From an uncultured virus (IMG/VR IMGVR_UViG_2687453592_000007) (Duplodnaviria > Heunggongvirae > Uroviricota > Caudoviricetes), in the IMG/VR virus record IMGVR_UViG_2687453592_000007: 64,000 nt of DNA; one strand, given 5' to 3'. The position numbers and the translations under genes were made by a program. A model generated the notes under the pieces. That model made no database searches, was not told the DNA's origin, and saw only the letters and a program-made list of their open reading frames with translations. Below are positions 9,871-50,011 of the stretch, one piece after another; within the stretch, counting starts at the first letter, position 1; each line of letters opens with the position of its first letter.

Positions 9871-10254
9871 ATGACGATCCGCAAGCTCTGCGCGGCCGCT
9901 GGCTGCGACGACCTCGCTGTGCCTGGCGCCGCGCTCTGCGAGTTGCACGAGGCCGAACGGATCGACCGGAACCGCGCGCGGCGGGCGAAGGTGAAGACGG
10001 CCGAGGAGATCCGGCGCCGCTCGAAGCTCTATGCCAGTCCCGCCTGGAAGACCGCGCGCGCTGCCTTCCTCGAGGCCAACCCGCTCTGCGTCGATTGCGC
10101 GGGGCTCGGGCTGGTGACCCCGGCCACCGAGGTGGATCACATCGCGCGGCACGAGGGCGACCGCGCCCGGTTCTGGGACCGTTCGAACTGGCAGGCGCTC
10201 TGCAAGAGCTGCCACAGCCGCAAGACCGCCCGCGAGGTGCTGGGGCGCAACTGA
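9871..10254 (+). CDS. HNH endonuclease (HK97 gp74-like terminase cofactor)
   Basis: PLCVDC..EVDHI..H.GD..FWD.SNWQALCKSCHSRKT; upstream of terS. Confidence 0.92.
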   Translation: MTIRKLCAAAGCDDLAVPGAALCELHEAERIDRNRARRAKVKTAEEIRRRSKLYASPAWKTARAAFLEANPLCVDCAGLGLVTPATEVDHIARHEGDRARFWDRSNWQALCKSCHSRKTAREVLGRN

Positions 10255-10385
10255 CACCGGGGGGTGTCCAAAAATCGACGGCCCCCCTCGGGAACCGCGC
10301 ATGGGAGCTTTCCTGTTGCGCGGGCCGAATTGGCAAAAAAAGCCCACGATTATAAGCCCCCGAGACAAAAACGGAGGGAGGTCCG
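10255..10385 (+). other. Probable cos region of E1 (HK97-like)
   Basis: Non-coding gap between HNH and terS with G-run, A-tracts and GC-rich core, the usual cos position in HK97-like phages. Confidence 0.5.
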
Positions 10386-10823
10386 ATGCGCGGTCAGAAG
10401 CCGAAGCTCGACAATGTCGTGCCGATGAAGGCCGACCAGACGGCGCCCGTGCCCGAGGCGCCCGACTGGATGAGCGCCGAGGGGCGGGACGCCTGGGACC
10501 GACTCGCGCCGGTGTTGGCGGGCAAGCGGCGGCTCGACCCGGCCTTTCACGACCCCTTCGCCGTCTATTGCGAGGCGGTGGCCGATGTCATCCGCTTCAC
10601 CGGTGATATCGCGGCCTTCGGCAGCTGGTACGAGGTCGAGACCCGGAACGGGCGGCAGCAGAAGAAGCGCGCGGTCTGGGGCCAGCGCCAGGACGCGATT
10701 GCCACCATGAACCAGCTCGCTGCGCGCTTCGGGATGACGCCGGTCGACGAGGCGCGGATGAGCGCGGGCGGGCAAGGCGATCTCTTCGGCGAGATCCTGA
10801 GGACACTCGATGGACCCGATTGA
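10386..10823 (+). CDS. terS: Terminase small subunit, P27 family
   Basis: MRGQKP N-terminus, EAPDWM..W, FGMTP..R motif. Confidence 0.9.
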   Translation: MRGQKPKLDNVVPMKADQTAPVPEAPDWMSAEGRDAWDRLAPVLAGKRRLDPAFHDPFAVYCEAVADVIRFTGDIAAFGSWYEVETRNGRQQKKRAVWGQRQDAIATMNQLAARFGMTPVDEARMSAGGQGDLFGEILRTLDGPD

Positions 10824-12471
10824 CCACCCGGTCTCGCGCTATGCGCTCGATGTGATCGAGGGCCGCGAGATCGCGGGCACGCTGGTGCGGCTCGCTTGCG
10901 AACGCCACCTGATGGATCTGGAGACCGGCCGCGACCGCGGGCTCCGGTTCGACTGCAAGGCGGCCTCGCGCGTCCTGAACTTCGCGCGGCTGATCAAGCA
11001 CACGACGGGTCCGGCGGCGGGCCGCCCGCTGGCGCTGACGCCCTGGCAGGTCTTCCGGCATGGCTCGGTCTTCGGCTGGAAGCAGGAGGACGGGCTGAGG
11101 CGGTTCCGCACCACCTATCACCAGGTCGCGAAGAAGAACGGCAAGACCACCGACACCGCGGTGCCGATGCTCTTCACCCAGCTCTTCGATGGCGAGGCAG
11201 CCCCCCAGGGCTTCTGCACCGCGACGACGCGCGATCAGGCGGGGCTTCTGTTCCGCGAGCTGCGGCGGATGATCAAGGCCGCGCCCGCGCTTTCGGCCTT
11301 CATGGACACCGACAACAAGCACCTGATCTCGACCGCGATCACCAATGGCACGATCCGGACGCTGAGCCGCGACGGCAACTCGGCCGATGGCATCAACCCC
11401 AGCTTCGTCGCCCGCGACGAGGTGCACCGCTGGACCGACCGCGAACTGGCCGAGGTGGTGGTCAATTCGATGATCGCCCGCGCCCAGCCCATCGATTGGG
11501 CGATCACCACGGCAGGCGCCGACATGGCCTCGATCTGCGGCGAGCTGAGGGAATACTCCGCGACCGTCCTGCGGGGCGATGTCGAGGATGACAGCTTCTT
11601 TGCCTATGTCGCCGAGCCGCCTGGCGATTGCGACGTGGGCGATCCGGTGGCCTGGAAGATGGCCAATCCCAATCTGGGCATCGCCTTCAGCGAGGAGCGC
11701 TTTGCCGAGCTTTACCGCGAGGCCACGGTGATCTCGGGCAAGATGCCGAACTTCCGGCGGCTGCACATGAACCTCTGGACCGAGGGCGCGCAGTCCTGGA
11801 TCGAGCGCGAGATCTGGGACAGGGGCGCCGAGCCCTTCGCGCCCGAGGCGCTTTACGGGCGCCCGGCCTGGGTCGGGCTCGATCTGTCGAAGACCACCGA
11901 CCTGACCTCGATCTGCATCGCGATCCCGAAGGACGGGCAGGTCTACCTGATCAGCTATTCCTTCCTGCCCTCGGGGCCGAAGGGCTTCATCGCCCGGGCG
12001 CAGAGCGAGAAGCGGGACTATGTCGCCTGGCGCGATCAGGGCTGGCTGGAGGTGCATGGCGGCGGCGTGATCGACGAGGACCAGGTGATCGAGCGGCTGG
12101 AATGGATCCGGGCGCGCTTCGATCTGCGCGAGCTGTCCTATGACCGCTGGGGCATGAAGTATGTGGCGAAGGAGCTGGTCAAGCGGCGCTTTCCGCTGGT
12201 CGAGCATGGCCAGGGCTATGCCTCGATGTCCTCGCCGATGAAGCGCTTCGAGCGCGCGGTGGCGCAGGGGCGGCTGCGGCATGGCGGCAATCCGGTGCTG
12301 GCCTGGGCGGTGGGCAATGTCCATCGCGACGAGGATGCGGCCGAGAACATCAAGCCCAACAAGGCGCGCTCGAAGGGGCGGATCGATCCGGCGGTGGCCG
12401 CGATCATGGCGCTCGGCCGCGCCGAGGCGGAGGCGGGCAAACGCAAGGCACGGGACGTGGCAACGGTATGA
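10810..12471 (+). CDS. terL: Terminase large subunit (HK97-type)
   Basis: LTPWQ, KKNGKT Walker A, DEVH Walker B, GLDLS..DLT nuclease, RIDPAVA. Confidence 0.95.
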   Translation: MDPIDHPVSRYALDVIEGREIAGTLVRLACERHLMDLETGRDRGLRFDCKAASRVLNFARLIKHTTGPAAGRPLALTPWQVFRHGSVFGWKQEDGLRRFRTTYHQVAKKNGKTTDTAVPMLFTQLFDGEAAPQGFCTATTRDQAGLLFRELRRMIKAAPALSAFMDTDNKHLISTAITNGTIRTLSRDGNSADGINPSFVARDEVHRWTDRELAEVVVNSMIARAQPIDWAITTAGADMASICGELREYSATVLRGDVEDDSFFAYVAEPPGDCDVGDPVAWKMANPNLGIAFSEERFAELYREATVISGKMPNFRRLHMNLWTEGAQSWIEREIWDRGAEPFAPEALYGRPAWVGLDLSKTTDLTSICIAIPKDGQVYLISYSFLPSGPKGFIARAQSEKRDYVAWRDQGWLEVHGGGVIDEDQVIERLEWIRARFDLRELSYDRWGMKYVAKELVKRRFPLVEHGQGYASMSSPMKRFERAVAQGRLRHGGNPVLAWAVGNVHRDEDAAENIKPNKARSKGRIDPAVAAIMALGRAEAEAGKRKARDVATV

Positions 12472-13781
12472 TCGGACTTCCTTTCCTCACGCGCGGCCGG
12501 AAAGCAGAGGCCCCCCGGCCCGAACCCCGGCCCGAACCCCGGCGCGAACCGCCGGTCACGGCCAGCATGGCTGCGGCCGGACCTGTGGAGCCCTCGGGCA
12601 CACGCGCCCCGTCGCCGTGGTTCGGCGATCACTGGGCGGGCACGCAATCCCGCGTGCGCTCGCTGCCGGTGGTGACGCCGCTGGCGGCACAGCGTCATGC
12701 CACGGTCTTCGCCTGCTGCAACGTGATCGCGGGCGATCTCGCCAAGGTGCCGCTGCGGCTCTACCAGCGGATGGGGCCGAGCCGGGCCGAGCCGGTGGTC
12801 GAGCATGCCGCGACCTATCTGCTGAACACCGAATCCGCCCCGGGCGTGGCGGCCCGTCTCGCGCGTTTTGCGCTGGTCTATGCCTTCGCGCTGCGCGGCC
12901 GGGGCTATGCCTATGCGCCCCGCGACGGCGCGGGCGAGCTGACGCTTCTGGATGTGATCCGCCCCGATCTCTGCGCCGAGCTTCGCGACGGCCGGGCGCG
13001 CTTCTATGCCTTCGAGGACGGGGCCGGGATCCAGCGCCGGGCGCCGTCCCGCGCGATGGTGCATCTGCGCTACATGGCCGAGGACGGCTGGACCGGGCGC
13101 AGCCCCTTGCAGGTCGCGGCCGAGTCGGTCGGCCTCGCGCTGGCCGGTCAGGAGGCCGCGGCGCGGGCGGCTTCGGGCGTGCAGATGCGCGCGGTCCTGA
13201 AGATGGAGGATGTCTACGAGGACGATGAGGCCTGGCACCGCAATGCCCGCCGCGTGCGCAACGCGCTGACCGATCCCGAGGCCAACGGGATCCCGATCAT
13301 CGGCGCCACCGAGGACATCAAGTCGCTGGATCTCTCGGCCGCCGATCAGCAGCTCCTGGAAAGCCGCAAGTTCGACCGCGAGCAGATCGCGGCGATCTAC
13401 CGGGTGCCGCCCTCGAAGCTGCAGATGCTGGAACACGGGGTGAAGGCCAACGGCCAGCAGCAGGCCATCGATTACAAGACCGACTGCCTGTTGCATTGGG
13501 GCGGCTTCGTCGAGGCGCAGCTGGCGCTCGGCGTGCTGACCGAGGCCGAACGGCGGGCCGGGCTCTTCTTCCGGCACGATTACGACGCGCTGATGCAGGC
13601 GACGACGAAAGAACGCTACGACGCACTGAAGGCGGCGGTGGGCGGCCCGTTCCTGACCGCCAACGAGGCCCGCGCCGAGGATGGCCGCGCCCCGGTCGAG
13701 GACGGCGACCGCCTCAACCCCGCCCCCAACATGACCCGCGACGAGGATGCCGGGGCCGAGACGACAGAAGGGAAAGACTGA
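12468..13781 (+). CDS. Portal protein, HK97 family
   Basis: VFACCNVIAGDLAKVPL, GRSPL, IAAIYRVPP, TANEAR motifs. Confidence 0.95.
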   Translation: MIGLPFLTRGRKAEAPRPEPRPEPRREPPVTASMAAAGPVEPSGTRAPSPWFGDHWAGTQSRVRSLPVVTPLAAQRHATVFACCNVIAGDLAKVPLRLYQRMGPSRAEPVVEHAATYLLNTESAPGVAARLARFALVYAFALRGRGYAYAPRDGAGELTLLDVIRPDLCAELRDGRARFYAFEDGAGIQRRAPSRAMVHLRYMAEDGWTGRSPLQVAAESVGLALAGQEAAARAASGVQMRAVLKMEDVYEDDEAWHRNARRVRNALTDPEANGIPIIGATEDIKSLDLSAADQQLLESRKFDREQIAAIYRVPPSKLQMLEHGVKANGQQQAIDYKTDCLLHWGGFVEAQLALGVLTEAERRAGLFFRHDYDALMQATTKERYDALKAAVGGPFLTANEARAEDGRAPVEDGDRLNPAPNMTRDEDAGAETTEGKD

Positions 13782-14698
13782 TGGAGATGACGATTGCCAG
13801 CCTTCTGGGCGCCGCCCCCCTGGCGCTGGATCACGACTTCGGGGCGGGGCTCCTGGGGCTGCCTTTGCCCGCCGCGCCTGCCGCCGGGCCAGCGCTTTCC
13901 GGGCCGGTCGAGGTGGCCCGCGGCGAGCGCTTCGCGGTCGCGCGCGGCGTGGCGGTGATGCCGGTGCGGGGCGTGCTGACGCCCAATGCCGAGATCCTCG
14001 AACGCTACCTCGGCTGGGCGACCTTTGCGGGGATCGAGGCCTCCTGCGGGGCGCTGGCCGCCCAGGAGGACGTGGCGGCGGTGGTGATCGAGTTCGACAC
14101 GCCGGGCGGGCTGGTCCTGGGCGGCGCGGCTGCGGCGGGGGCCATCGCGGCGCTGGCGGCGGTCAAGCCCGTCCATGCCCTGGTCAATCCGCTGGCGGCC
14201 TCGATGGGGTATCACCTGGCGAGCCAGTGTTCGGAGATCGCGATGACGCCGGGCAGCCTCGCGGGCTCCATCGGCATCATGCGCCAGGCGGGCTGGCCGG
14301 TCGGCCCGGACAGGGCGGGCCAGCAATGGCAGATCTTCACCTCGACCCATGCCCGCGCCAAGCTGCCGAACCCCGAGACCGAGGCGGGCCGGGCCGAGAT
14401 CCGGCGCGATCTCGATGCCCATGAGGCGGCCTTCCATGCCGATGTCGCCCGGGGCCGGGGCATCGCCCCCGGGGATCTGGCCGCGCGGCTGTCCGTGACC
14501 GACGACCCGACCGATGGCGGGGCGACCTTCGGGCCGGAGGCGGCCATCGCCCGCGGCCTTGCCGACCGCGCCGAGACCCGCCTGGCCTTCTATGACCGGA
14601 TCTTTGCGGCCCATGCGCCCAGGCCCGCCGCCCGGCGGAGCTCGGGCCGGGGCCACCTGGCGCAAGCCGCCGCCGCGCAGGCCCGCGCCACGCTCTGA
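13781..14698 (+). CDS. Prohead protease, S49 family
   Basis: DTPGG, AASMGYHLAS, GSIGI motifs. Confidence 0.9.
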   Translation: MEMTIASLLGAAPLALDHDFGAGLLGLPLPAAPAAGPALSGPVEVARGERFAVARGVAVMPVRGVLTPNAEILERYLGWATFAGIEASCGALAAQEDVAAVVIEFDTPGGLVLGGAAAAGAIAALAAVKPVHALVNPLAASMGYHLASQCSEIAMTPGSLAGSIGIMRQAGWPVGPDRAGQQWQIFTSTHARAKLPNPETEAGRAEIRRDLDAHEAAFHADVARGRGIAPGDLAARLSVTDDPTDGGATFGPEAAIARGLADRAETRLAFYDRIFAAHAPRPAARRSSGRGHLAQAAAAQARATL

Positions 14699-14778: not shown

Positions 14779-16101
14779 ATGCCCAAACCCCGTGACCTGA
14801 ACGATCTGCGCCGCGAGCGCCGCGCGGCGGCCGCGCAGATGCAGGAGCGCGCCGATGCGCTGGCCGCGCTCGAAGGGGCGGAAACGCCCGATACCGAGGC
14901 CATCGCCGCGGCCGAGACCGCCTTTGCCGAGGCCCAGGCGGGCTTCGAGACGCTGAACGCCCAGGTCGGCCGGGCCGAGGCCACGGACGCCGCCCGCGCC
15001 GCCGCCGCAACCGGGGGCGACGATCCCGCGCCCGCCCAAACCCCCGCGCCGCAGGCCGCCACGCCGCGCAATCCCGCGCATCGGGGCGTCGAGGTGGGCT
15101 TCATGCTGCATGCGCTGGCGGCCAGCCGGGGCGACCGCGAGCGCGCGGTGGCGCGCCTTGAGACCGACGGCCATTCCGGCGTTGCCGCGATCATGTCGGG
15201 CGCCTCGGAAGCCGCGGGCGGCATCACCATTCCCGCCGCGCAATCCGAGGAACTGATCGCGCTCCTGCGCCCGCGCGTCACCGTCCGGGCCTCGGGCGCG
15301 CGCACCGTGCCGATGCCGGCCGGTGAGCTGCGCACCGCGCGCCAGAGCGCGGGCGCGACCGCGGGCTATGGCGCCGAGACCTCGGCCATCGCGGAAAGCG
15401 AGATGAGCTTCGATGCGGTCGACAAGTCCTTCAAGCTCCTGCGCGCGCTGGTGCCGCTCTCGAACAGCCTCTTGCGGCATTCCTCGGTCGCCATGGCCCA
15501 GCATGCCCGGGATGACCTGCTGAAGGCGATGGCGCTGCGCGAGGATCTGGCCTTCCTGCGCGGCGACGGCGCGAATGACACGCCGAAGGGGCTGCGCAAC
15601 TGGGCGCTGGCCGACAACTGGCGCGAGGGCATCGCGGGCACGGCCGCGGCGGCCGAGGCGGCGGTTCGCTGGGCGGTCTCGACGGTCGAGGACGCCAATG
15701 TCGGCATGGTGCAACCTGGCTGGATCATGCGCGCCTCGGCCAAGAACTGGCTCGCGAGCCTGCGCGATGATCGCGGCACCCCGGTCTTCCCCTCGATCGA
15801 TGCCAGCGGGACGCTGAAGGGCTATCCGATCCGCACCACTTCGCAGGTGCCCGACAATCTGGGCGCGGAGGGCGACGGCACCGAGATCACCTTCGCCGAT
15901 TTCGACGAGGTGGTGATCGGGGACGCGATGCAGATCGCCATCGCCGCCTCGACCGAGGCCGCTTTCGTCGATGCCAATGGCGAGACGATCTCGGCCTTCC
16001 AGCGCGATCTGACGCTGATGCGCGCGGTCTCCGAACACGATCTCGCACCCAGCCATGACGAGGCCATCGCGGGCTTCACCGCGACCGGCTGGTCGCTCTG
16101 A
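14779..16101 (+). CDS. Major capsid protein, HK97 fold with N-terminal delta domain
   Basis: Coiled-coil N-terminus, GGITIP, FLRGDG..PKGL, FQRDLT.MRA motifs; position. Confidence 0.93.
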   Translation: MPKPRDLNDLRRERRAAAAQMQERADALAALEGAETPDTEAIAAAETAFAEAQAGFETLNAQVGRAEATDAARAAAATGGDDPAPAQTPAPQAATPRNPAHRGVEVGFMLHALAASRGDRERAVARLETDGHSGVAAIMSGASEAAGGITIPAAQSEELIALLRPRVTVRASGARTVPMPAGELRTARQSAGATAGYGAETSAIAESEMSFDAVDKSFKLLRALVPLSNSLLRHSSVAMAQHARDDLLKAMALREDLAFLRGDGANDTPKGLRNWALADNWREGIAGTAAAAEAAVRWAVSTVEDANVGMVQPGWIMRASAKNWLASLRDDRGTPVFPSIDASGTLKGYPIRTTSQVPDNLGAEGDGTEITFADFDEVVIGDAMQIAIAASTEAAFVDANGETISAFQRDLTLMRAVSEHDLAPSHDEAIAGFTATGWSL

Positions 16102-16139: not shown

Positions 16140-16487
16140 ATGACGAAGGTCATTCTGAAGTTCCGCCGCGCCCATGGGCGCTACAACCGCGGCGAGGTGG
16201 CGGGGTTTGCGCCCGCGCTGGCCGCGAAGCTGACCCGGGGCGAGGACCCGGTGGCGACGGTCTTCGACCGGGCGGCCGAGGCCCGGCTTGCCGCCGCGCC
16301 CGTCGATCCGGCCGAACTGGCGGCCCGCGCCGCCGATCTGGCCGCCCGCGAGACGGCGCTTGCGACGCGCGAGGCGGCCCTGGCCCAGGCCGAGGCGAAG
16401 GCCGAGACCGGCGCGCCGCCGAAACAGGGCAAGGCCGCCGGGAAAGAGACCGCCAAGGATCCGGCCAAGGACGCGGCGACGGCATGA
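16140..16487 (+). CDS. Small head-associated protein
   Basis: Follows capsid; GRYNRGEVAGF motif; RBS. Confidence 0.6.
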   Translation: MTKVILKFRRAHGRYNRGEVAGFAPALAAKLTRGEDPVATVFDRAAEARLAAAPVDPAELAARAADLAARETALATREAALAQAEAKAETGAPPKQGKAAGKETAKDPAKDAATA

Positions 16488-17032
16488 TCCTGGAAGAGAC
16501 CCCGCCGCCGGGTGTCAGTGTCGAGGCGTATAAACGCGCCTCGCATTGGGAGGGCGATGCGGACGATGCCCGGATCGGGGCCTGTCTGGCGGCGGCGCAA
16601 TCGGCGGTCGAGACCGCCACGCGCCGTCCGCTGACGCCCCGCCGGGTGCGCTTCGAGACCGCCGCCGGACAGGGCCGCCGCTGGTGGGTGCCGGTCGCCC
16701 CGGTGCGCGCGCTGCTGGGCGTGAGCTGGTCGGGCGGCGAGCTGAGCGCGGAGGCCGCCCGGCTCCTCTTTCCCGACAGCGAGCCGCAGATCCTCCTTGC
16801 CCCGGGGGCGCTGGCGCGGGTGCCGGACGGCGCGCCGCTCCGGATCGCCCTCGAGGTCGGTCCCGACATCGTGCCGCCGACGCTGGCCCAGGCGGTGATC
16901 CTGATCGCGCGGGACTGGCTCGATGCGGGGATCGCCATCGAGACGGTGGAAAGCCCGCGCATCGCCTTCGGGGCGCGCTCCCTGATCCGGCAGATGCGCT
17001 ATCGGCGCCCCGGCATCTGGTGCCGCCGATGA
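16484..17032 (+). CDS. Head-tail adaptor (gp6-like)
   Basis: DDARIGACLAAAQSAVETATRRPL...VPPTLAQAVIL. Confidence 0.8.
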   Translation: MILEETPPPGVSVEAYKRASHWEGDADDARIGACLAAAQSAVETATRRPLTPRRVRFETAAGQGRRWWVPVAPVRALLGVSWSGGELSAEAARLLFPDSEPQILLAPGALARVPDGAPLRIALEVGPDIVPPTLAQAVILIARDWLDAGIAIETVESPRIAFGARSLIRQMRYRRPGIWCRR

Positions 17033-17370
17033 GCCTGTGTCTCGACCGCCGCGTCACCTTCGAGCGCCAGGGGCAGGGGCGCAATGCGCTGAACGAACCC
17101 ACGGGCGCCTGGGCGGAGATCGCCACGCTCTGGGCCGCGCGCGCGGATCTGGCCGAGACCGAACGCGCCGCGGCGGGCCAGATCGGGGCGGTGCGCGCCG
17201 CGCGCTTCACCCTGCGCCGCTCGGCCCTGGCCGAGGGCCCGGCCCGGACCCTCAGTGCCGCCGACCGGCTCCGGGACGAGGGAATGATCTGGAACATCAC
17301 CGGCGTCACCGAACGCGGCCGCTGGGTCGACGTCTCGGCCGTCAGCAATGGCCGGAAGGAGGAGGCATGA
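17029..17370 (+). CDS. Head closure protein (SPP1 gp16-like)
   Basis: LDRRVTF, W.EIATLWA motifs; position. Confidence 0.85.
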   Translation: MSLCLDRRVTFERQGQGRNALNEPTGAWAEIATLWAARADLAETERAAAGQIGAVRAARFTLRRSALAEGPARTLSAADRLRDEGMIWNITGVTERGRWVDVSAVSNGRKEEA

Positions 17371-17876
17371 GCAAGCAACCCGTCTCGGTCGATGGCCTGG
17401 CCGACCTGGAAAAGATGATGGTGGAGCATCTGCCCAAATCGACCGGCCGGGGCGTGCTGCGCCGGGTGGGCAAGTCGGCGCTGGGGATCTTCGTCGAGCG
17501 CGCCCGCGATCTCGCACCGCGCGCCAGCGGCGATCTGGCCGAGAGCCTCGCGGTCTCGACCCGGCTCGACCCCAAACAGCGCCGCGATCACCGCAAGCTC
17601 GTGCGCGACGACAAGGCGGCGGTCGAGATCTTCGGCGGCGCCGCGGCGCTCCCCCATGCCCATCTGGTCGAGTTCGGCAGCGTCGAGCGGCATCTGGAAA
17701 GCGGCGGCTCGACCGGCACCATGCCAGCCCAGCCCTTCATGCGCCCGGCCTGGGACGCGACCCGCGAGGCGGTGCTGGCCGGTATCGCCAAGGGGCTCGG
17801 GCACGAGATCGCGAAGACCGTGGCCCGCCGCGCGAAGCGGCTGGCGAAGAGGGCCGGGAAGGGGGGCGGCCGATGA
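17367..17876 (+). CDS. HK97 gp10-like neck/tail completion protein
   Basis: APRASGDLAES, HLVEFG, MPAQPFMRPAWD. Confidence 0.88.
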   Translation: MSKQPVSVDGLADLEKMMVEHLPKSTGRGVLRRVGKSALGIFVERARDLAPRASGDLAESLAVSTRLDPKQRRDHRKLVRDDKAAVEIFGGAAALPHAHLVEFGSVERHLESGGSTGTMPAQPFMRPAWDATREAVLAGIAKGLGHEIAKTVARRAKRLAKRAGKGGGR

Positions 17877-18292
17877 GCTTCAAGGCCGACCTGACCGATC
17901 TCTTGCTGAGCGATCCGGGGCTCGCGGATCTGGTCGGCGCACGCATCACCTGGGGCCGCCGCGCGCCCGGCGAGGGGCTGCCCGCGCTGGTGCTGCTGCG
18001 GGTCGGCGCGACACGCGACTATCACATGAAGGGGGTCGGCGCGCTGCGGCGCACCCGGATCCAGGCCGAGATCCTGGCCACCACGCTGGCCGAGGCGGGC
18101 GAGGTCGAGGCGCGTCTGATCGCCCGGCTCGACGGGGTCCGCGGCCCCCATGGCGGCACCGATTTCCGCGGCATCTTCGTCGAGGCCCTGCGCGACGGGC
18201 TCGACACCGACCGGGACGGCAGCGGGATCCACCGGATCCTGGCCGACCTGATCATCCATCACAGGGTTCACAACGAGGAGAATGAGAGATGA
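17873..18292 (+). CDS. Tail terminator (DUF3168-like)
   Basis: LADLVGARI..LPALV motif; precedes tube gene. Confidence 0.8.
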   Translation: MSFKADLTDLLLSDPGLADLVGARITWGRRAPGEGLPALVLLRVGATRDYHMKGVGALRRTRIQAEILATTLAEAGEVEARLIARLDGVRGPHGGTDFRGIFVEALRDGLDTDRDGSGIHRILADLIIHHRVHNEENER

Positions 18293-22455: not shown

Positions 22456-22525
22456 TCTGCCCTCCCATGACGAGGCCCGCCATGACCGTCACCAACACCG
22501 CGCGCGCCCATCCGCCGGAGGCCCC

Positions 22526-41237: not shown

Positions 41238-41259
41238 TCTTGGCTCCGGAAACTTTTTT

Positions 41260-41350: not shown

Positions 41351-41385
41351 CGGGCTATTGCAGCCCGCAGACAGGGAGGGACGGC

Positions 41386-42208: not shown

Positions 42209-42853
42209 ATGACCGATCTGGCCGATCTCCGCCGCCTCTATCCGCTGCCCGAGGGGGTGGAGGACACCGCAATGAACCGCGCCCAGATCGCCCGCGCCCT
42301 CGATGTCAGCGACAACACGATCAGCAAATGGATCGCGCAGGGCATGCCGGTGCTGGAGGAAGGCGGGAACGGCCGGGAATATGCCTTTTCGCCGGCCGAT
42401 TGCTACGCCTGGCGGAGGCATCGCGATGCCGGGGCGCGGGCGGCGAAGGCGGCGGCCGACCGCTCGGCCTCGCAGCTGGCAATGGCGTTCCGCAATCTCG
42501 ACGAGGAGGATGCCAATGCCTCGGCCGGGCTGACCGCCAAGCAGATCGCCGAGGAGGCCGATGCCGATTACCGCTACCAGCGCGCGGCCGAGCAGCGCGG
42601 CGAGCTGACCCGGACGGCGCGGGTGCGCGATCTCTTCGAGGACATGCTGGTCGAGTTCCGCCGCACCATCACCACGCTGGTCGATTATTGCGAGATGGAG
42701 TTCTCGCTCGATCCCGAGGAGACCGCCAAGCTCGAGGCCCGCTGCGACGGGGCGCTGGTGCGGGCGCGCGGCAACCTGGAACAGGCCATCGGCCGGGGTG
42801 CGGCCGAACCGGTCGCGCTGCGGCGGGGCGACCAGGGCGAGATGGGGCTCTGA
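42209..42853 (+). CDS. Terminase small subunit, lambda Nu1/DUF1441-like
   Basis: MNRAQIARALDVSDNTISKWIAQGMPV..GGNGREY.F winged-HTH; coiled C-terminus. Confidence 0.82.
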   Translation: MTDLADLRRLYPLPEGVEDTAMNRAQIARALDVSDNTISKWIAQGMPVLEEGGNGREYAFSPADCYAWRRHRDAGARAAKAAADRSASQLAMAFRNLDEEDANASAGLTAKQIAEEADADYRYQRAAEQRGELTRTARVRDLFEDMLVEFRRTITTLVDYCEMEFSLDPEETAKLEARCDGALVRARGNLEQAIGRGAAEPVALRRGDQGEMGL

Positions 42854-42854: not shown

Positions 42855-42926
42855 ATGGTGGTGATCCGCGATGCCCGGATCGGCGCGCTGCGCAGCTTCG
42901 CGCCGCTGCCGGGAGTGCGGCGATGA
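42855..42926 (+). pseudogene. 23-codon remnant, probably N-terminus of gpA-type terminase large subunit, fused to sequence upstream of tape measure gene
   Basis: Starts 1 bp after terS stop (MVVIRDARIGALRSFAPLP...); stop overlaps TMP start (ATGA). Confidence 0.55.
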
Positions 42927-45037
42927 TCGACGTTGGACGGCTGCGCGTGCGGCTGGGGCTCGACAATCGCGAGTTTCAGACCGGACTGGCAAAGGCCCGG
43001 GGCGCGTTCGGCAAGTTCGCGGGCCGCATCGCGGCGGCGGCGGCCCCGGTGGCCATCGGGGCGGCCGTCGCAGCCGCGGCCAGGTCGAGCTTCGAGATGG
43101 TCGATGCGCAGGCCAAGCTGGCGCAGTCCCTCGAGACCTCGACCAGATCGGTGCAGCTGCTGGGCCGCGCCGCCGATCTGTCCGGCGTGCCGATGTCGCA
43201 GCTGCAGCAGGCCGCGCTGGCGCTGAACAAGCGCCTCTCGGAGGCCTCGTCCGGCGCGGGCCCGGCGGTGAAGGCGCTGCGGGCCCTGGGCCTGGAGGCC
43301 CGGGATCTGCTCGGCCTCGATCTCGATCAGCGCTTCGACAGGATCAACGGCGCCATTGCCGGGCTGGAGGATCCGGCGAAGAAGGCCGCGGTTGCGGCGG
43401 CGCTCTATGGCGACCGGGCCTATGCCGCCATCACCCGGCTGGACAGCGCGACGCTCAGCCAGGCGGCCCGCGATGTCGATCAGTTCGGGGTCGCGCTGTC
43501 GGAGCTGCAGGCCGACAATATCGAGGCCGCCAACGATGCCATGTCGACGCTGGGCGTGGTCATGCGCGGGGTCGGCAACCAGGTCGCGGCCAGCATGGCC
43601 CCGGCGATCACCGCGCTGGCCACCGGCTTCACCGACCTGTTGCGCGAGGGCACGCCGCTGCGCGCGATGCTGGACGGGCTGGGCGCCAGCGTGAGCGGCA
43701 CGTTCCAGGTCATGTCCGGGACCATCGGCCGGCTCATGTCCTATGCCGGCACATTCGCGTCCTTCCTGGCGGGGCGGTTCGTCACCAGCATGTCGCTGGC
43801 CGCGGCCTCGGTGGTGACGCTGAACGCAAAGCTGCTGCTGACCCGGGCGGCCCTGATGCGCACCGGGTTCGGCGCGCTGGTCATCGGTGTCGGCGAGCTG
43901 ATCTATCGCTTCACCGGCCTGGTCGAGGCCACCGGCGGCGTCGGTCAGGCCTTCGATGCGCTGAAGACGGTGGCGATCGAGGTCTGGGAGCGGATCGGCG
44001 CGGGCACCCGGATCGTCGTGCTGGCGGTGAAACGGATGGGCTGGGCGATCCGCGCGGATTTCTACGGCACGCTCGAGGCGATCCAGTCCAAATGGGGCGG
44101 CGTCATCACCAACATGGCGGCCATCGGCGCGATCATTCCGGGCTTCGGCTCGCAGTTCCGGGCGGTGGCGGCCGAGATCCGGAAGAGCAGCGCCGCCGCG
44201 AAGGATCTGAAGACCGCCACCAGCGAGGCGACCGGAAAGGTGGCCGAAAACGCCAGGGCCATCGAGGCGGCCCTGACCGGCTTCACCGCCCCCCTTGCCT
44301 CGGTCGAGGCGCTGCGGGCGAAGCTCAGGGACGCCCGCGCCGAAATGGACAATACCGGCACCAGCTCGCAGGGCCTCAAGGCGGCGCTCAAGGATCTGAA
44401 CGATGCCCTCTCCGGTGACGGCAAGGGCGGCAAGGGCTCTGGCGTCGACGAGGTCGAGAGCGGGCTCACCCGGCTGGGCACCAGCGTCAACGCCACAAGC
44501 AGCAGCTTCCAGAGCTTCTTCAAGGATATCGTGAAGGGCTCGGGCGATGCGGGCGACGCGGTCTCGGCGCTGGCCGACCGGATGCTGGACGACCTGCTCG
44601 ACCGCGCGATGAGCCCGCTCTCGGACGCCCTGGGCTCCATGTTCGACGGGCTGTTCTCGGGGCTCTTCGGTGGCCGCGCAAGCGGCGGCGGCGGGACGGT
44701 CAAGCCCATCGGGGATCTGATCGGCAAGGTGATGGAGGGCGGGTCGTTTGACGGCGGCGGGCGCACGCCCCTCGGGCCGCGCGCGGGCGGGCTCGACGGC
44801 AAGGGCGGGTTCCTGGCCATGCTGCACCCCAATGAAAGCGTGATCGACCATACCCGCGACAGCGGCGGCTTCGGCGGCTTCGGCGCGGTCCGGGGCGGCG
44901 ACGTCTATGTCAGCGTGCAGGGCTCGAATGCCAGCCCCGAGCAGATCGCGGCCGCCGTGCGGGCGGAAAGCCGACGCCAGGCCTCGGAGATCTACGACCG
45001 CCGCAAGCGGATGGCCCGGGCGGGAGGGGCGAGCTGA
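42923..45037 (+). CDS. Tail tape measure protein (704 aa)
   Basis: VGRLRVRLGLD..F N-terminus, Ala/Gly helical body, C-terminal FDGGG.T..GG.DGKGGFLAMLHPNE.V. Confidence 0.93.
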   Translation: MIDVGRLRVRLGLDNREFQTGLAKARGAFGKFAGRIAAAAAPVAIGAAVAAAARSSFEMVDAQAKLAQSLETSTRSVQLLGRAADLSGVPMSQLQQAALALNKRLSEASSGAGPAVKALRALGLEARDLLGLDLDQRFDRINGAIAGLEDPAKKAAVAAALYGDRAYAAITRLDSATLSQAARDVDQFGVALSELQADNIEAANDAMSTLGVVMRGVGNQVAASMAPAITALATGFTDLLREGTPLRAMLDGLGASVSGTFQVMSGTIGRLMSYAGTFASFLAGRFVTSMSLAAASVVTLNAKLLLTRAALMRTGFGALVIGVGELIYRFTGLVEATGGVGQAFDALKTVAIEVWERIGAGTRIVVLAVKRMGWAIRADFYGTLEAIQSKWGGVITNMAAIGAIIPGFGSQFRAVAAEIRKSSAAAKDLKTATSEATGKVAENARAIEAALTGFTAPLASVEALRAKLRDARAEMDNTGTSSQGLKAALKDLNDALSGDGKGGKGSGVDEVESGLTRLGTSVNATSSSFQSFFKDIVKGSGDAGDAVSALADRMLDDLLDRAMSPLSDALGSMFDGLFSGLFGGRASGGGGTVKPIGDLIGKVMEGGSFDGGGRTPLGPRAGGLDGKGGFLAMLHPNESVIDHTRDSGGFGGFGAVRGGDVYVSVQGSNASPEQIAAAVRAESRRQASEIYDRRKRMARAGGAS

Positions 45038-45627
45038 TGGCCTTTCCACCGCCGAGCGTTCGGGTCGCCGCCTTCACCCTGACCCGGATCACCAGCAGCC
45101 TGCGGGTGCAGAGCCCCTACAGCTTTGCCCAGACCGCCTATGACTTCATGGGCGGGATGTGGGCGGCCGAACTGACCCTGACCCATGTCTCGGCGGCCGA
45201 GAATGCCGCGACCGAAGCCTGGCTGGCGGGCCTGAACGGGATGGCCGGGACCTTCGAGATGGGGCCAGTCGACTACGAAGGCCCCTATGGCAAGATCTCG
45301 GCCGATCCTGTCGTCGCGGTCGCGGCCAATGCCCGGGCGCAGGCGCTGGTGCTACAGCTCGCCAGGGCGGGCGACCGGGCGCTGCCGGGCGATTACCTGA
45401 CCCTCGGCCGCCATCTGCATATCGTGACCGCGGCCGAGGCCCCCACACCGGCCTTCCGGCAGAGCGTCACGCTCTGGCCGCGGCTGCGCCGCCCCGTCGC
45501 CCCGGGCGATCCGGTAACGATGCGCGCGCCCTTCGGCACCTGGGCGCTGGCCGGGCCCGAGACCAGCTACAGCGGCAGCCAGTCCCGGATCCGGACACGC
45601 ATATTGCAAGTCAGAGAGGCGCTGTGA
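45037..45627 (+). CDS. Putative distal tail protein
   Basis: Directly after TMP; SPYSF.Q..GGMWAAEL.L, WPRLR motifs. Confidence 0.7.
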   Translation: MAFPPPSVRVAAFTLTRITSSLRVQSPYSFAQTAYDFMGGMWAAELTLTHVSAAENAATEAWLAGLNGMAGTFEMGPVDYEGPYGKISADPVVAVAANARAQALVLQLARAGDRALPGDYLTLGRHLHIVTAAEAPTPAFRQSVTLWPRLRRPVAPGDPVTMRAPFGTWALAGPETSYSGSQSRIRTRILQVREAL

Positions 45628-46151
45628 TGGACGCGAGCGGAGATCGGATGCTGGGCCTGCTGGTGCGCTGCCGGTTCGATACCGGAGATCTGGCGATGTT
45701 CACCGGATATGGCGAGGTCGACTGGGAGGGCGTGACCTATCTGGGCGCGGGGCAGATGCTCTCGGTCGGCGAGGCGCAGGCGACCTCGGGCGACGGCATT
45801 CCGGGGCTGTCGATCACGCTTTCCGGGCTCGATCCGGAGGTGGTGGCGCTGGCCGAGCTCGAGGAGTTCCAGCGCCGCCGGGTGACGGTGTTCCTGGCGC
45901 TGTTCGACGAGACCGGCCAGATCGAGACGGCCGATGTGCTCTTCGACGGGGTCGCCGACACCATGGAGAGCGATGACGGCCCCGACACCGCCACCACCAC
46001 GCTGGCGCTCGAGCCGCGCAGCATGGCGCTGGGGCGCAAGTTCCCGTGCTACTACCTGCCCGAGGACCAGAAGAAGCGCTTTCCGGGCGATCAGGGCTTC
46101 GACCTGGTCCAGGCGATCCAGAACCGCGAAGATACCTGGGGGCGGTCGTGA
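45627..46151 (+). CDS. Putative tail hub/gpL-position protein
   Basis: FTGYG.V.W.G.TYLGAG, DQK.RFPGD.GF..V motifs. Confidence 0.72.
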   Translation: MDASGDRMLGLLVRCRFDTGDLAMFTGYGEVDWEGVTYLGAGQMLSVGEAQATSGDGIPGLSITLSGLDPEVVALAELEEFQRRRVTVFLALFDETGQIETADVLFDGVADTMESDDGPDTATTTLALEPRSMALGRKFPCYYLPEDQKKRFPGDQGFDLVQAIQNREDTWGRS

Positions 46152-46555
46152 GGCGCGCGGGCTGGGAGCGGCGCCTGTCGGCGGCGGTGCGGGACTGGGA
46201 GGACCGGCCCTTTGCCTGGGGCACGGCCGATTGCCTGGGCTTCTGCCGGGCCGTCGCCCGGAGCATGACCTGGGAAGATCCGATACCGGGCCTGCCGGAT
46301 TACGGTTCGGAATACGGGGCCGCCAAGGTGCTGGTCTCGCTGGGCTTCGGCTCCATCGAGGCGCTGGTCGACGCGCATCTGGAGCGGCTGCCGGTCGCGG
46401 GCGCGCGGCGCGGCGACTGGGTGATGACCGCCTGCGAGGGCGCGATGCCGGGCGCCATGGGCGTGGTGACGGGGCGCTATGCGCAGCATATGGGCCGGAA
46501 CGGCCTGGTGCGCCGCCCGGTCCTGACCGCGGAGGCGGCATGGCGTATCGACTGA
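46148..46555 (+). CDS. NlpC/P60-like tail protein (DUF6950-like)
   Basis: WE.RL, PFAWGTADC, ARRGD, AWRID motifs; before J. Confidence 0.75.
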   Translation: MRRAGWERRLSAAVRDWEDRPFAWGTADCLGFCRAVARSMTWEDPIPGLPDYGSEYGAAKVLVSLGFGSIEALVDAHLERLPVAGARRGDWVMTACEGAMPGAMGVVTGRYAQHMGRNGLVRRPVLTAEAAWRID

Positions 46556-49167
46556 TCCTTCCCGCGCTGCTGATCCTGCTGGCCGGACCCGCGCAGGCCA
46601 TGCCGCCGGTGGTGGCGGCCCTTGGCGTTGCGGCGGGCGGCTGGATGGCCGGGCTGACCGCGACCGCCATCATGGGCCAGGCCGCGCTCGCGGCCGTGCT
46701 GACCGGCATCCAGATGGCGATGGCGAAGAAACCCAAGGCCAAGACCCGTGACGAGATCACGCTCAACCGGATCCAGCCGGTCACCACGGGCCGGATCCTC
46801 TATGGCGAACGCATGCTCGGGGGCTCGATTGTCGCCCGCGCCACCACCGAGGCCGGGGGCAAGCCGCATCGCCGCTATCACTCGATCATGCCGCTGGCCT
46901 GCCACGAGATCGACGGCGCGGTCGAGATCTGGCTGGGCGAGACGCTGGTCTGGACCGAGGCGCAATACCGCCGCGATGAAGCCGCGGGCACGGGCGATCC
47001 GTATCACTGGGGCCAGGTCGGAAGCGATTACCAGGGCCGCGTGCGCCTCCGCGTCCACAATGGCACCGAGGATCAGGCGGCCGAGGCCCGCTATGTCGCG
47101 GCCGCCCGCGAATGGACCGAGGCGCATCGGCTGCGCGGCGTGGCCTATGTCTATTTCGAGGCCGATTACGACCGCGATCTCTTCCCCAGCGGCGCGCCCC
47201 AGATCCGGGTCCGCGCCCGCGGCAAGCGGGTGCTCGATCCGCGCGACGGCCAGGTCAAATACAGCACCAACCCGGCGCTCTGCCTGCGCGATTACATGCT
47301 GACGCCGCAGCTCCGCGGCGGGCCGGGCTGGCGCCCCGGGGATCTCGACGAGGACACGATCCTGGCGCTGGCCAACCTGGCCGAGGAACAGGTGCCGCTG
47401 GCCTCGGGCAGGGCCGAGGACCGCTATGCCTTCAACGGCGTGCTCGAGACCGAGGCCACCGCGGCCGAGAACCTCAACGACCTGTCTTCCTCCTGGGGCG
47501 GCTGGTGGACCTGCGAGCGCGGCCGCCTGACCGTCGGGGGCGCGGCCTGGGAGGAGCCCGCCTTCACCGTCACCGAGGACATGCTGGTCGGCGGGATCCA
47601 GGTCACCGCCCGCAAGCCCTTCGAGGAGCAGTTCAACACCGTGAAGGCGCAATATGCCGATCCGGAGAACGAGCATGTCGTGACCGATCTGCCGGTGCTG
47701 GACAGCGCCACCTATATCGCGGCCGACAATGGCGAGCCGCTGGTGCTCGACATGGGCGAGCTGCCGGGCGAGACCGGCTTTGCCCGCGGCCAGCGGCTGA
47801 TGAAGCTGGCACTGCTGAAGGGCCGCCGCCAGAAGCAGGTCACGCTGCCCTGTTCGCTTGCCGCCTGGCCGGTGCGGCGGGGCGACAACATCCGGGTCTC
47901 GCTGCCGCGCCGGGGCTGGACGGCCAAGACCTTCGAGGTCACCGGCCGCACCGTCCATATCGGCAAGGACGGGGTCCGCGTCACGCTGAGCTGCATCGAG
48001 ACCGGCCCCGCAATCTTCGACTGGCGGACCTCGGAGGAGACGCCCAAGCCCGCGGGCGGGATCCCGACGCTGCCCTCGCCGACCGCAAAACCGGTGGTGA
48101 GCGCGCCGACCATGACCGAGGCGCTTTACGAGACCCGCGGCGGCGGCGGGGTCAAGACCCGGGTCCGGCTGGCGGCCACCACCGACAATCCCTTCATTGA
48201 CGCCTGGCAGTTCGCCTGGCGCCCGGTCTCGGCCCCCGAGCCCACGCTGCGCGGGCTCACCGATACGCCCGAGGACATGATCGACGACGTGGCGCCCGGC
48301 CCCTATGCCTTCGGCGTGCGCGGCCGCAATGCGCGCGGCATCTGGTCGGACTGGGCCTGGGCAGGCGCCACTGCCGTGCAGGGCGAGAACGCCCCGCCGG
48401 GCGCCATCACCGGGCTTTCGGTGCAGGCCTCGGGCGGCGCGGTCGCGATGCTGCGCTGGGACCGGCATCCCTCGCTCGACGTGCGCCAGGGCGGCCGGAT
48501 CGAGTTCCGCCACGCGACCGCGCAGGCGGGTGCCAGCTGGCAGAGCTCGACCGGCATCGGCAAATCGGTCTCGGGCGGGGTCACCGAGGCGACCCTGCCG
48601 CTCAAATCCGGCACCTATCTCGCGCGCCCCTATGACGCGATGGGCACGCCCGGCCCGGTCTCGGGGATCGCGGTCCGCGCCGCCTCGATCATCCCGACCA
48701 CGACCGTCGCCACCCTGGCCGAGGCCCCTGGCTTTGCCGGGACCGCCACCGGCTGCCACGCGGCGGGCGGCGTGCTGGCAATGGCGCCGGGCGAGACCCG
48801 CGCGCGCTACGCCTTCGCGGGCCGGGTCGATCTGGGCGCGGTCCAGCCGGTGCGGCTGATCTCGGATATCGAGCTCCTGATCTCGGAGGCCCGGGACCTG
48901 TTCTGGCAGCCCTCCGGCACGGCGATGTGGACGCCGCCCGATGCGCGGCTCTGGCTCGGATCGACGGATGCCTATGGCGATGTCGACCTGCAGGTCTCGC
49001 TCACCGACGACGACCCCGAAACCGCCCGCTGGGGGCCCTGGCAGAGCTTCGATGCCGCCGACTTCTCGGGCCGGGCCTTCCGCTTCCGCGCGGTCCTGAG
49101 CGTCGAGAGCCCCGATTACACCATCGGCATCACGGGCCTGACCGTGACCGCCCTCCAGGCCGCATGA
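46540..49167 (+). CDS. Central tail tip/host-specificity protein (J-like) (E2)
   Basis: Near-identical to 18963-21602 apart from the N-terminal leader. Confidence 0.9.
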   Translation: MAYRLILPALLILLAGPAQAMPPVVAALGVAAGGWMAGLTATAIMGQAALAAVLTGIQMAMAKKPKAKTRDEITLNRIQPVTTGRILYGERMLGGSIVARATTEAGGKPHRRYHSIMPLACHEIDGAVEIWLGETLVWTEAQYRRDEAAGTGDPYHWGQVGSDYQGRVRLRVHNGTEDQAAEARYVAAAREWTEAHRLRGVAYVYFEADYDRDLFPSGAPQIRVRARGKRVLDPRDGQVKYSTNPALCLRDYMLTPQLRGGPGWRPGDLDEDTILALANLAEEQVPLASGRAEDRYAFNGVLETEATAAENLNDLSSSWGGWWTCERGRLTVGGAAWEEPAFTVTEDMLVGGIQVTARKPFEEQFNTVKAQYADPENEHVVTDLPVLDSATYIAADNGEPLVLDMGELPGETGFARGQRLMKLALLKGRRQKQVTLPCSLAAWPVRRGDNIRVSLPRRGWTAKTFEVTGRTVHIGKDGVRVTLSCIETGPAIFDWRTSEETPKPAGGIPTLPSPTAKPVVSAPTMTEALYETRGGGGVKTRVRLAATTDNPFIDAWQFAWRPVSAPEPTLRGLTDTPEDMIDDVAPGPYAFGVRGRNARGIWSDWAWAGATAVQGENAPPGAITGLSVQASGGAVAMLRWDRHPSLDVRQGGRIEFRHATAQAGASWQSSTGIGKSVSGGVTEATLPLKSGTYLARPYDAMGTPGPVSGIAVRAASIIPTTTVATLAEAPGFAGTATGCHAAGGVLAMAPGETRARYAFAGRVDLGAVQPVRLISDIELLISEARDLFWQPSGTAMWTPPDARLWLGSTDAYGDVDLQVSLTDDDPETARWGPWQSFDAADFSGRAFRFRAVLSVESPDYTIGITGLTVTALQAA

Positions 49168-49174
49168 GGATGAC

Positions 49175-50011
49175 ATGACCCAAGCCACCTATCTGCTCGA
49201 CACCGGCCATACCAAGGCCCAGGCCTTCGCCATGCTGCAGGGCGTGCTTTCCGCGATCCAGAGCGGAAATGCAGGCGCCACCCCGCCCGCCGAGACGGCG
49301 GCCGGCATGATCTGGGTCGATACCGACGCCCGCGCCCTGAAGATGCGCAATGTCCCGAACAATGGCTGGATCACGCTGGGCAGCTTCGCCTCCGGCACGT
49401 TCGTTCCGGCCGGGGTGAACCAGCTGACCGAGGCGCAGGCGAAGGATGCGTTTTCCGACATCTACGGCGCTGTCACGGGCCAGATCCTGGCCGCCGCCAT
49501 CGATGCGCGGGTGAGAGCCACGGGGGCCCCCGTCAACGAGGCCGTCTGGCACCCCTATGACATGGTTCGCGTCGGCGATGGCGCAGACGGGCTGTTCTGG
49601 GACCATTCCTTGACGGGGAACCAGCGGTACGTTCAAACCCCCGACTTTGAAGACGGGTACGAGTACATGCTCAGGATCATGGGCATGGAGTGGCATGGGT
49701 ACGGCAATAAGCGCCCAACAATCAAAGGCTTCATCGAGCAGACGGGGCGTTATGCTTCTGCGATGGCTATGGCTGGCGACGTCGAGCCCTCAACCGGCTT
49801 TCATGTGATGATTCGCTTGCTCTTCCCGAGAGTGCCGAGCCCGTTCTTCGGCATCGAAGGTAAGATCCCCTCAGGGCAAATAAGGACATCGACGCTTGGA
49901 GGGAACGACCGGACGGTATCCAGGGCTGAGATCTCCTGGGCCGACGGGGACACCGACATCAGGGCTGGCAAGATGTACCTGTATCGCCGCCGTGAGTACA
50001 TTTCGGGCTGA
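49175..50011 (+). CDS. Putative tail fibre/receptor-binding protein (E2)
   Basis: Shared N-terminus with 21610-22455; lower-GC divergent C-terminus. Confidence 0.7.
   Translation: MTQATYLLDTGHTKAQAFAMLQGVLSAIQSGNAGATPPAETAAGMIWVDTDARALKMRNVPNNGWITLGSFASGTFVPAGVNQLTEAQAKDAFSDIYGAVTGQILAAAIDARVRATGAPVNEAVWHPYDMVRVGDGADGLFWDHSLTGNQRYVQTPDFEDGYEYMLRIMGMEWHGYGNKRPTIKGFIEQTGRYASAMAMAGDVEPSTGFHVMIRLLFPRVPSPFFGIEGKIPSGQIRTSTLGGNDRTVSRAEISWADGDTDIRAGKMYLYRRREYISG

Follow-up and report, generated by a model that had tools for sequence, protein, structure and literature searches.

Whether two neighbouring defective prophages could divide one virion between them is the question raised by a 64,000-nucleotide (nt) stretch of DNA from an uncultured virus (IMG/VR record IMGVR_UViG_2687453592_000007; Caudoviricetes), referred to below as the window. 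Self-comparison of the window resolves two related, collinear elements, E1 (1-31624) and E2 (31675-62307), each with a gap in its late operon, and the original prediction took the two gaps for reciprocal gene losses that had made the pair an obligately mutualistic 'split' siphovirus. The account favoured here, and considered probable, is that E1 and E2 carry independent, recent deletions that arose in a tandem array at a tRNA-Cys gene, within a recombining pool of defective prophages. That the two deletions were independent, that the elements do not function as a pair, and why they have been retained are points that we infer from the comparisons that follow.

The window corresponds to G000:C1:4082125-4132586 and continues over the origin of this 4.13-Mb circular record, window position 50463 being C1:1. 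The G000 genome consists of three contigs with a G+C content of 67%, and its chromosome is that of a Rhodovulum, a marine phototrophic alphaproteobacterium, judging by the names attached to the ≥90%-identical matches of the window proteins. E1 and E2 themselves have 66-74% G+C, with an island of ~50% G+C after each. They share an early block (E1 6341-8471 versus E2 37815-39945, 98.3% identity), a block around the central tail fibre gene J (E1 19001-21936 versus E2 46565-49501, 96.8%), and a right arm and other blocks at 92-95% identity.

The gene orders first read from the window were confirmed for both elements with PHROG, Pfam, and tblastn. On the plus strand of E1, the late operon runs from a 154-amino-acid (aa) HNH endonuclease (9790..10254; phrog_144, 1.2e-30) through a small terminase gene, terS, of the Terminase_4 type (10386..10823; PF05119, 6.9e-21; phrog_83), a 553-aa large terminase, terL (10810..12471; TerL_ATPase and TerL_nuclease), a portal (12468..13781; PF04860, 6.1e-69), an S49-type head maturation protease (13747..14698, with an uncertain start, the longest open reading frame (ORF) beginning at 13496; phrog_53, 1.7e-42; Peptidase_S49), and a 440-aa major capsid protein of the HK97 family (14779..16101; PF05065, 5.6e-50). 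Connectors for head completion, an HK97 gp10-like/Neck1 function, and tail completion/termination (16140..18292; PF05521, PF04883, PF11367; phrog_25, phrog_5, phrog_347) lead to a 142-aa tail tube (18289..18717; Phage_TTP_12, 5.7e-20) and a 77-aa chaperone stump (18721..18954; Phage_TAC_11 positions 2-61 of 96), after which comes an 879-aa J-like central tail fibre with its native start (18963..21602; phrog_5616, phrog_31). No tape measure protein (TMP), distal tail protein (Dit), hub, or DUF6950 gene was found within E1 by tblastn, and the N-terminal sequence of its J follows DUF6950 at two other loci. An ORF at 9786-10355 had no HNH match in family scans; the HNH gene occupies a different frame, at 9790-10254.

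The late operon of E2, also on the plus strand, opens with a 255-aa gene (41338..42105; phrog_1924, 'minor tail protein') that likewise precedes terS in a remnant termed R3 and in an intact prophage of genome G015. Next come a Nu1-like terS of 214 aa (42209..42853; Phage_Nu1, 1.4e-07; phrog_57), with a 100% identical copy at R3, and a terL stump of 23 codons (42855..42926), in which 20 native codons of a gpA-type terL are followed by VRR and a stop, and which overlaps the start of a 704-aa TMP (42923..45037; phrog_8462, 1.4e-70). Dit (196 aa; 45037..45627; phrog_1302), a hub-like protein (174 aa; 45627..46151; phrog_2048), a DUF6950 protein (135 aa; 46148..46555; PF22262, 4.9e-33), and an 875-aa J-like protein (46540..49167) complete the tail set, and tblastn found no terL, portal, capsid, connector, tube, or chaperone in E2. 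All five tail proteins of E2, from TMP to J, have the same lengths as their other copies, and 704-aa TMP forms are also present in other assemblies. Two details of the earlier reading needed correction: the gene called NlpC-like encodes the DUF6950 protein, the similarity to NLPC_P60 being non-significant (E 0.23), and the 1077-aa ORF proposed for J has an out-of-frame N-terminus, the true start at 46540 matching that of the E1 J. Even with a threshold as loose as E 1, Pfam had no match to J, Dit, hub, or the fibres. The claim that the two J proteins are near-identical held, at 96.7% identity over 876 aa.

Neither element has a complete morphogenesis set, and both are defective prophages. It was correctly foreseen that neither builds a virion alone, each being a deletion derivative of a complete siphoviral prophage, and that a complete genome cannot be regained by one crossover between E1 and E2. 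The expectation that the retained structural ORFs are intact was also borne out. Over 8 kb, E1 10640-18668 is 92.2% identical to a contig of the same-genus genome G005, with eight indels; seven have lengths divisible by three, and the remaining one, of 17 nt at 17017, falls on a gene boundary. The connector genes keep their reading frames against this copy.

Intact relatives place both deletions precisely. Two contigs of G005 match E1 through 18949 and then have 4.1-4.7 kb ahead of J, encoding the remainder of a chaperone of 126 aa, a second chaperone ORF that overlaps it, a TMP of 683 aa, Dit, hub, and DUF6950, and a third matches the whole E1 head module (10640-18668) at 91-92%. The E1 deletion spans ~4.1 kb, from the chaperone C-terminus and second chaperone through TMP, Dit, hub, and DUF6950, and its junction falls at a TCG microhomology (18947..18949, plus strand). 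In the stump, 75 native chaperone codons run in frame into the final two codons of DUF6950 and its stop, and the J ATG lies 8 nt past this native DUF6950 stop, with the spacing found at other loci. In the 90% cluster of this chaperone, 11 of the 12 distinct sequences are 120-129 aa long and 77 aa occurs only in that of G000; the exact 77-aa form is present on four contigs, not necessarily independent of one another.

The E2 deletion is larger, at 8.2 kb, and reaches from terL codon 20 to just upstream of the TMP start, with loss of terL, portal, protease-capsid, decoration, connectors, tube, and both chaperones. Its junction (42913..42922, plus strand) was located by comparison with a prophage on G015:C13 and with a contig from sequencing run X2. 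The first 20 residues of the terL stump are the N-terminus of a gpA-type terL that runs for ~280 aa at R3 (C1:3.056 Mb; Pfam GpA_ATPase) and that continues as GpA_ATPase in G015 too. In the G015:C13 prophage, whose integrase end is 93% identical in nucleotide sequence to that of E2, the two sides of the junction are separated by 8211 nt encoding a 724-aa gpA terL, lambda-family portal, protease-capsid, cement, head-tail attachment, tube, 124-aa chaperone, and second chaperone. The run X2 contig, from another strain with the same organism label, has 41792-42913, then 8210 nt, then 42912-43947, and its two flanks differ from E2 at 11 of 1122 and 11 of 1036 positions. Because an E2-type phage is thus intact at ~99% identity in a sister strain, the E2 deletion is recent and strain-specific. 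Microhomology at both junctions is only of the 3-nt scale.

Mapping against the intact arrangement in G015 shows that the two deletions share ~0.44 kb, covering the chaperone C-terminus and the whole second chaperone. The idea of reciprocal deletions therefore stands only in part: the gene content is complementary, and the reciprocity is imperfect. The original prediction had itself pointed out that these chaperone parts are missing from both elements, and this was confirmed, the only intact copies being those of a third prophage, P3, described below. In lambda, the chaperones gpG and gpGT are both needed for siphoviral tail assembly. The arrangement in the intact relatives and in P3 is similar, with a Phage_TAC_11 gene, an overlapping second chaperone ORF, and TMP next; E1 differs in that the second chaperone is gone and just 75 codons of the first, out of 120-126, are left, and E2 retains neither. 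No intact chaperone of E1 or E2 type was found anywhere in the genome by tblastn, and the P3 pair is 32% and 46% identical to the E1-type proteins of G005.

The same paired deletions were looked for in related genomes and not found: neither junction occurs in any of the 60 other genomes searched, 16 of them of the same genus, and among the 61 including G000 only G000 matches across either. When deletions of 8.2 and 4.1 kb were placed at random in the 16.5-kb late region, they did not overlap in 17% of trials and overlapped by at most 450 nt in 21%. The complementarity of E1 and E2 is real but statistically unremarkable.

E1 and E2 are not alone in the chromosome, which carries 13 multi-gene loci of the same prophage family and at least seven single-gene fragments, with the loci grouped in three tandem arrays, one at tRNA-Cys and the others at 2.44-2.51 and 3.05-3.12 Mb. 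The deletion joins differ from remnant to remnant: the left methyltransferase is joined to Dit or to the middle of TMP, endolysin to terL residue ~240 or to residue 86 of an E1-type terS, and a P3-type terS to J residue 167; J is present at nine genome sites. Several related prophages with different defects thus share one genome, as in a defective-prophage pool, and E1 and E2 are the two least-decayed regulated members of the family. At five loci the protein sequences of the E1 fibre (281 aa) and endolysin (169 aa) recur with 100% identity, and the adjoining J genes differ by 3-12%, a pattern suggestive of recent exchange of modules, or gene conversion, between remnants.

The sibling prophage P3 (C1:2485476-2512471; L001, L002) has a complete structural operon by PHROG: HNH, putative terS, terL, portal, ClpP-type protease, capsid, Ad1, Hc1, Neck1, tail terminator, tube, two chaperones (117 aa for the first and 103 aa for the second), a TMP of 669 aa, Dit, hub, DUF6950, J, fibre, lysis genes, and integrase. 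Identity to E1 in the early genes is 97.9%, and the hub is 96% identical to that of E2, but the segment corresponding to E2 34834-36824, where the repressor and cro lie, is absent from P3, and the genes on either side of the gap are cut short and directly adjoin. E2-like sequence 34535-34834 is there joined to 36824-37298, and a contig from run X1 has the same joint (34824>36828). Since P3 lacks the immunity region, no family member examined in this genome is complete. The integrase type of P3 is common to four other remnants.

A leader of ~95 nt precedes the late operons of E1, E2, P3, R3, R4, and a remnant at 1.006 Mb, and combines TTGACT/TTGACA-like hexamers with a GC hairpin of -27 to -28 kcal/mol followed by UUUGCGUU. 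In E1 (9771..9862, plus strand), TTGACT/TTGACA-like hexamers precede the GC-rich hairpin (-27 kcal/mol, z -2.1), and TTTGCGTT comes after it; the homologous E2 leader (41245..41352, plus strand) has a hairpin of -28 kcal/mol with z -3.05, and further copies lie at L002:5725-5845 (minus strand) and L003:5000-5140. Consensus scans found no sigma-70 promoter or terminator in the E1 leader, the scan not permitting the bulge in the hairpin, and one promoter-like site in that of E2 (41261-41290). The conserved leader may be a shared target for antitermination or activation, and late control in lambdoid phages offers an analogy for how a single late regulator could serve every one of these operons.

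These observations suggest the following course of events. E1 and E2, which are neighbours in a tandem array of related temperate siphoviral prophages at the tRNA-Cys gene, would each have been hit by its own illegitimate, microhomology-type deletion within the late operon, and their losses would be largely complementary because two independent hits fell in a 16-kb operon, not because the elements co-evolved. The at least 13 multi-gene remnants of this family would form a genome-wide pool whose members recombine among themselves, and their recency, together with their methyltransferases and anti-phage defence cargo, probably explains why they persist. Several facts sit less easily with this account. 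Of the four deletion end-points, three are no more than ~60 nt from a gene boundary, and both junctions keep translational coupling, the E2 stump overlapping the TMP ATG behind GGGAG and the E1 stump stopping 8 nt before the J ATG. Such a pattern is what selection for continued expression would give, although other remnants have mid-gene end-points. The retained structural ORFs, moreover, are all intact. With no complete member, production of particles would need cooperation, and the leader common to E1, E2, and P3 suggests that the late regulator of one element could switch on the others. The gene-boundary end-points, the coupling, and the intact ORFs fit recent deletions equally well.

The intact ORFs and the coupling at the junctions are also what an evolved, obligate 'split' phage, with head, neck, and tube from E1, TMP, Dit, hub, and DUF6950 from E2, and gene losses under selection, would draw on, together with the complementary content, the adjacency in one attachment (att) array, the near-identical J proteins, and the shared late leader. 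This explanation is nevertheless very improbable. The joint virion gene set is incomplete, with the chaperone C-terminus and second chaperone available only from P3, and the E2 TMP is just 44-47% identical to the G005 TMPs that are the native partners of an E1-type tube (69% to that of G015 and 40% to that of P3). E2, having no full terL and a terS of a different family from that of E1, would probably not be packaged by E1, so that the relation would not be mutual and E2 would gain nothing. The ~99% identical intact phage in the sister strain, the absence of either junction from all 60 relatives, a chance expectation of ~0.2 for the observed arrangement, and the presence of eleven other multi-gene family loci in the same chromosome all tell against it as well. 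The claim that reciprocal loss had produced obligate mutualism between E1 and E2 fails the checks made, on account of the shared chaperone loss, the lack of a packaging route for E2, the lack of conservation, and the chance expectation. An error of assembly has the least to commend it and is scarcely credible, even in a highly repetitive family in which mis-joins among 93-99% identical prophage copies, or an error of record closure at 50462/50463, might be imagined. J occurs at nine places, the record origin lies inside E2, and among the run X1 matches listed one stops at precisely 42913 and none is seen to reach across to 42923; run X3 likewise has no piece bridging the E2 junction. The run X1 contigs, though, show no differences from E2 as far as 42913, the point at which the assembly graph would be expected to branch with R3, and reproduce other joints such as 34824>36828. 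The junctions also lie outside the repeats, the left flank in E1 and the TMP N-terminus in E2 being single-copy and the flanks sharing ~3 nt; the exact 77-aa stump is on four contigs; and the collinearity of E1 and E2 is unbroken across the record origin (22517-22863 versus 50163-50513). Run X1 contains 72% of the words sampled from a 701-nt stretch over the E1 junction, and runs X2-X5 and X7 contain fractions of 0.25-0.43, which are compatible with presence or absence of the junction.

An explanation that deserves more weight, though it too is judged unlikely, keeps the pool and adds real trans-complementation or recombinational rescue, with a shared late regulator that, once E1 (or E2) is induced, would activate all the late operons of the family. 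In its most plausible form, E1 DNA would be packaged in E1 heads with tails mainly from the complete P3 set; a double crossover between E1 and P3 that swapped in the complete late region of P3, giving a viable phage, is a further possible form, and in both the E2 TMP block would be dispensable. Complementation or rescue of this kind is possible because the late-operon leaders are conserved across elements, six operons having one. P3 would supply every structural function by PHROG and the only intact chaperones, and E1 keeps its integrase, att site, repressor, replication genes, HNH-terS-terL set, and intact head module. Homologous blocks shared by E1 and P3 flank the morphogenesis region on both sides (E1 6344-9466 at 97.9% and E1 19032-25727 at 98.0%), and there is a precedent in E. 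coli O157 Sakai (PMC2669165). The connector and tube proteins of E1 and P3, however, are only 35-40% identical (the E1 tube falls in this range against that of G015 too), which makes head-tail joining across elements uncertain, and P3 may be silent, having lost its repressor, cro, and early control region. Taken further, E1, E2, and P3 could be imagined as a three-way interdependent consortium acting as one multipartite temperate phage. P3, which has lost its repressor, cro, and early promoter region, would then give a complete structural operon and the only tail chaperones, and E1 and E2 would give inducible immunity and early regions. The cos-type head module unique to E1 and the tail core of E2 would be further contributions. 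After induction of E1 or E2, a late regulator from the induced element would work in trans through the late leaders of all three, and particles or complete recombinant phages would arise from the pool only. This is improbable. Independent, recent deletions within a recombining pool remain the preferred reading.

Other classes of defective element were considered and set aside. An F-type tailocin has a tail tube, chaperones, TMP, and tip without head genes, and E2 was ruled out as one by its lack of a tube or chaperone. Phage-inducible chromosomal islands (PICIs) and their capsid-forming relatives (cf-PICIs) are small dedicated elements without tail genes that hijack a helper; E1, at 31.7 kb with tube, J, fibre, and lysis genes, and E2, at 30.7 kb with TMP through J, are neither. 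E1 would resemble a capsid-forming satellite in relying on another element for part of its virion, but it has a full temperate-phage backbone one 4.1-kb deletion away from an intact relative, and its architecture is therefore not that of a dedicated satellite. A gene transfer agent (GTA) was ruled out by the integrase, att sites, repressor, and HNH/terS/terL genes. Rhodovulum sulfidophilum has been reported to release GTA-like particles with 4.5-kb DNA, mapped to an RcGTA-like cluster (PMC5669443), and the E1 chaperone belongs to a Pfam family named for GTA gp10; that cluster is not at these loci, and E1 and E2 differ in having integrases, att sites, repressors, and cos-type terminase genes.

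The closest parallel is the set of prophages in E. coli O157 Sakai, of which many defective members are reported to be induced, packaged, and even transferred, with new phages arising by inter-prophage recombination (Asadulghani et al. 2009, PMC2669165). The likeness lies in many related lambdoid-type prophages, mostly defective, with homologous modules and possible inter-prophage complementation. The present case differs in its marine phototrophic alphaproteobacterial host and in its tandem arrays at a shared att, and complementation is only a possibility. No literature was found on tandem prophages with tail complementation. Among the matches listed for Rhodovulum prophages, no title or abstract concerns these loci, and one names only Rhodovulum phage RS1. 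Sequenced phages include no close relative (best terL identity 36.6%, TMP at most 37% and partial), and the lineage appears to be undescribed. The locus offers a well-resolved case of prophage decay in a polylysogenic marine alphaproteobacterium, with a different deletion at each locus, defence systems at many, and none examined complete, and with it a good natural setting in which to study the persistence, recombination, and possible mutual complementation of defective prophages outside enterobacteria. Were particles built from the parts of several elements, the concept of a defective-prophage pool would be extended and distributed phage genomes would become tractable.

Tandem polylysogeny at a tRNA att site is a general phenomenon, and the array here has its hallmarks, with four copies of one att core (51-66 nt) after tRNA-Cys and an integrase behind each. 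In E1 and E2 the tyrosine integrase stands beside direct att repeats, and the target is tRNA-Cys: the attL of E1 lies 45-110 nt left of the window (-110..-45) and overlaps the 3' end of the tRNA gene (C1:4081989-4082062). A repeat search placed the next copy, which separates E1 and its cargo from E2, at 31625-31674; the third, at the right end of E2 and its cargo, lies at 62308-62373, followed by a third integrase at 62431-63483, and the fourth is at 69159-69222 in extended coordinates. The copies bound four elements, namely E1 with cargo (31.7 kb), E2 with cargo (30.7 kb), a 6.8-kb element, and a fourth, E4. This array is distinguished by the diversity of its integrases (E1 and E4 99.5% identical, E2 52% and the third 28% identical to E1) and by the fact that every member examined is a deletion derivative. 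The 6.8-kb element, which occupies 62374-64000 and continues in L027 (G000:C1:11800-20400), encodes, besides its integrase, an Abi-like gene (phrog_2158, 1.1e-58) and remnants of a protease-capsid fusion gene (phrog_4523).

Outside the late operon, E1 has a 366-aa tyrosine integrase (1..1101, minus strand; phrog_1) and a 211-aa repressor-like protein (4747..5382, minus strand; phrog_4 transcriptional repressor, 1e-15), which has no other 100% copy in the genome and 59-61% identical homologues at three further loci. The E1 terL is single-copy in the genome, its sole other tblastn match being that of P3 at 24.7%. Downstream of J, on the plus strand (21610..23891, by PHROG), are a fibre (21610-22455), holin (22839-23051), endolysin (23056-23565), and a downstream lysis gene, and a methyltransferase gene comes after the lysis genes in E1 and likewise in E2. 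The 361-aa E2 integrase (31739..32824, minus strand; phrog_1) is 52% identical to that of E1 by tblastn. Its immunity region (35738..36383), assigned by PHROG repressor and regulator families, comprises an HTH repressor (35738-36040, minus strand) and a cro-like gene (36135-36383, plus strand), and is unique in the genome, its counterpart being the region deleted in P3. Beyond J, also on the plus strand, E2 has a 278-aa fibre (49175..50011), 54.5% identical to that of E1, and a holin, endolysin, and downstream lysis gene (51330..52394; PHROG). RNA contigs from run X9 gave 10 records on E2, and the matches listed comprise pieces of 22-44 nt in long unrelated contigs and one 222-nt piece (38911-39131), a result equally compatible with expression of E2 and with its absence.

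Between fibre and holin, E2 carries a two-gene insert (50600-51347, minus strand) with an HTH-like protein of 109 aa (phrog_2104) and one of 141 aa (phrog_5869), which may be a toxin-antitoxin or regulator pair. It is absent at other loci, in agreement with the joint 50466>51330 seen in contigs of runs X1 and X2. The circular record has its origin (50462/50463) between the fibre region of E2 and this pair.

The cargo islands, at the right ends of the two elements, differ. That of E1 (26596-29514, ~50% G+C) encodes an LmuB-like SMC/AAA ATPase (PADLOC LmuB, 2.1e-45) and an ABC-3C CTD9 protein (PF20285, 7.1e-34), and looks like a Lamassu/ABC-3C-type defence system. The island of E2 (55934-61437) holds a PDC-M11 A/B pair, a 513-aa PIN-GNAT protein with a 267-aa HTH-ASCH protein, and a CBASS-like SMODS cyclase (59997-60884) with a SLATT_4 2TM effector (60730-61437). 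On both sides of it lies a 185-nt inverted repeat (53994-54177 and 61503-61687, 95%), with more copies ~34 kb downstream, beyond the window, which may mark the ends of a mobile cassette. DNA methyltransferase genes (phrog_757, phrog_56) number two or three per element (2254-4469, 24252-25067, 33825-34847, 52428-53360) and are among the most widely kept genes across the family remnants. A segment with an AraC-family regulator (29867-31446; regulator 30014-31000) is repeated at 99% identity at C1:40053-41307 and C1:1562856-1564434.

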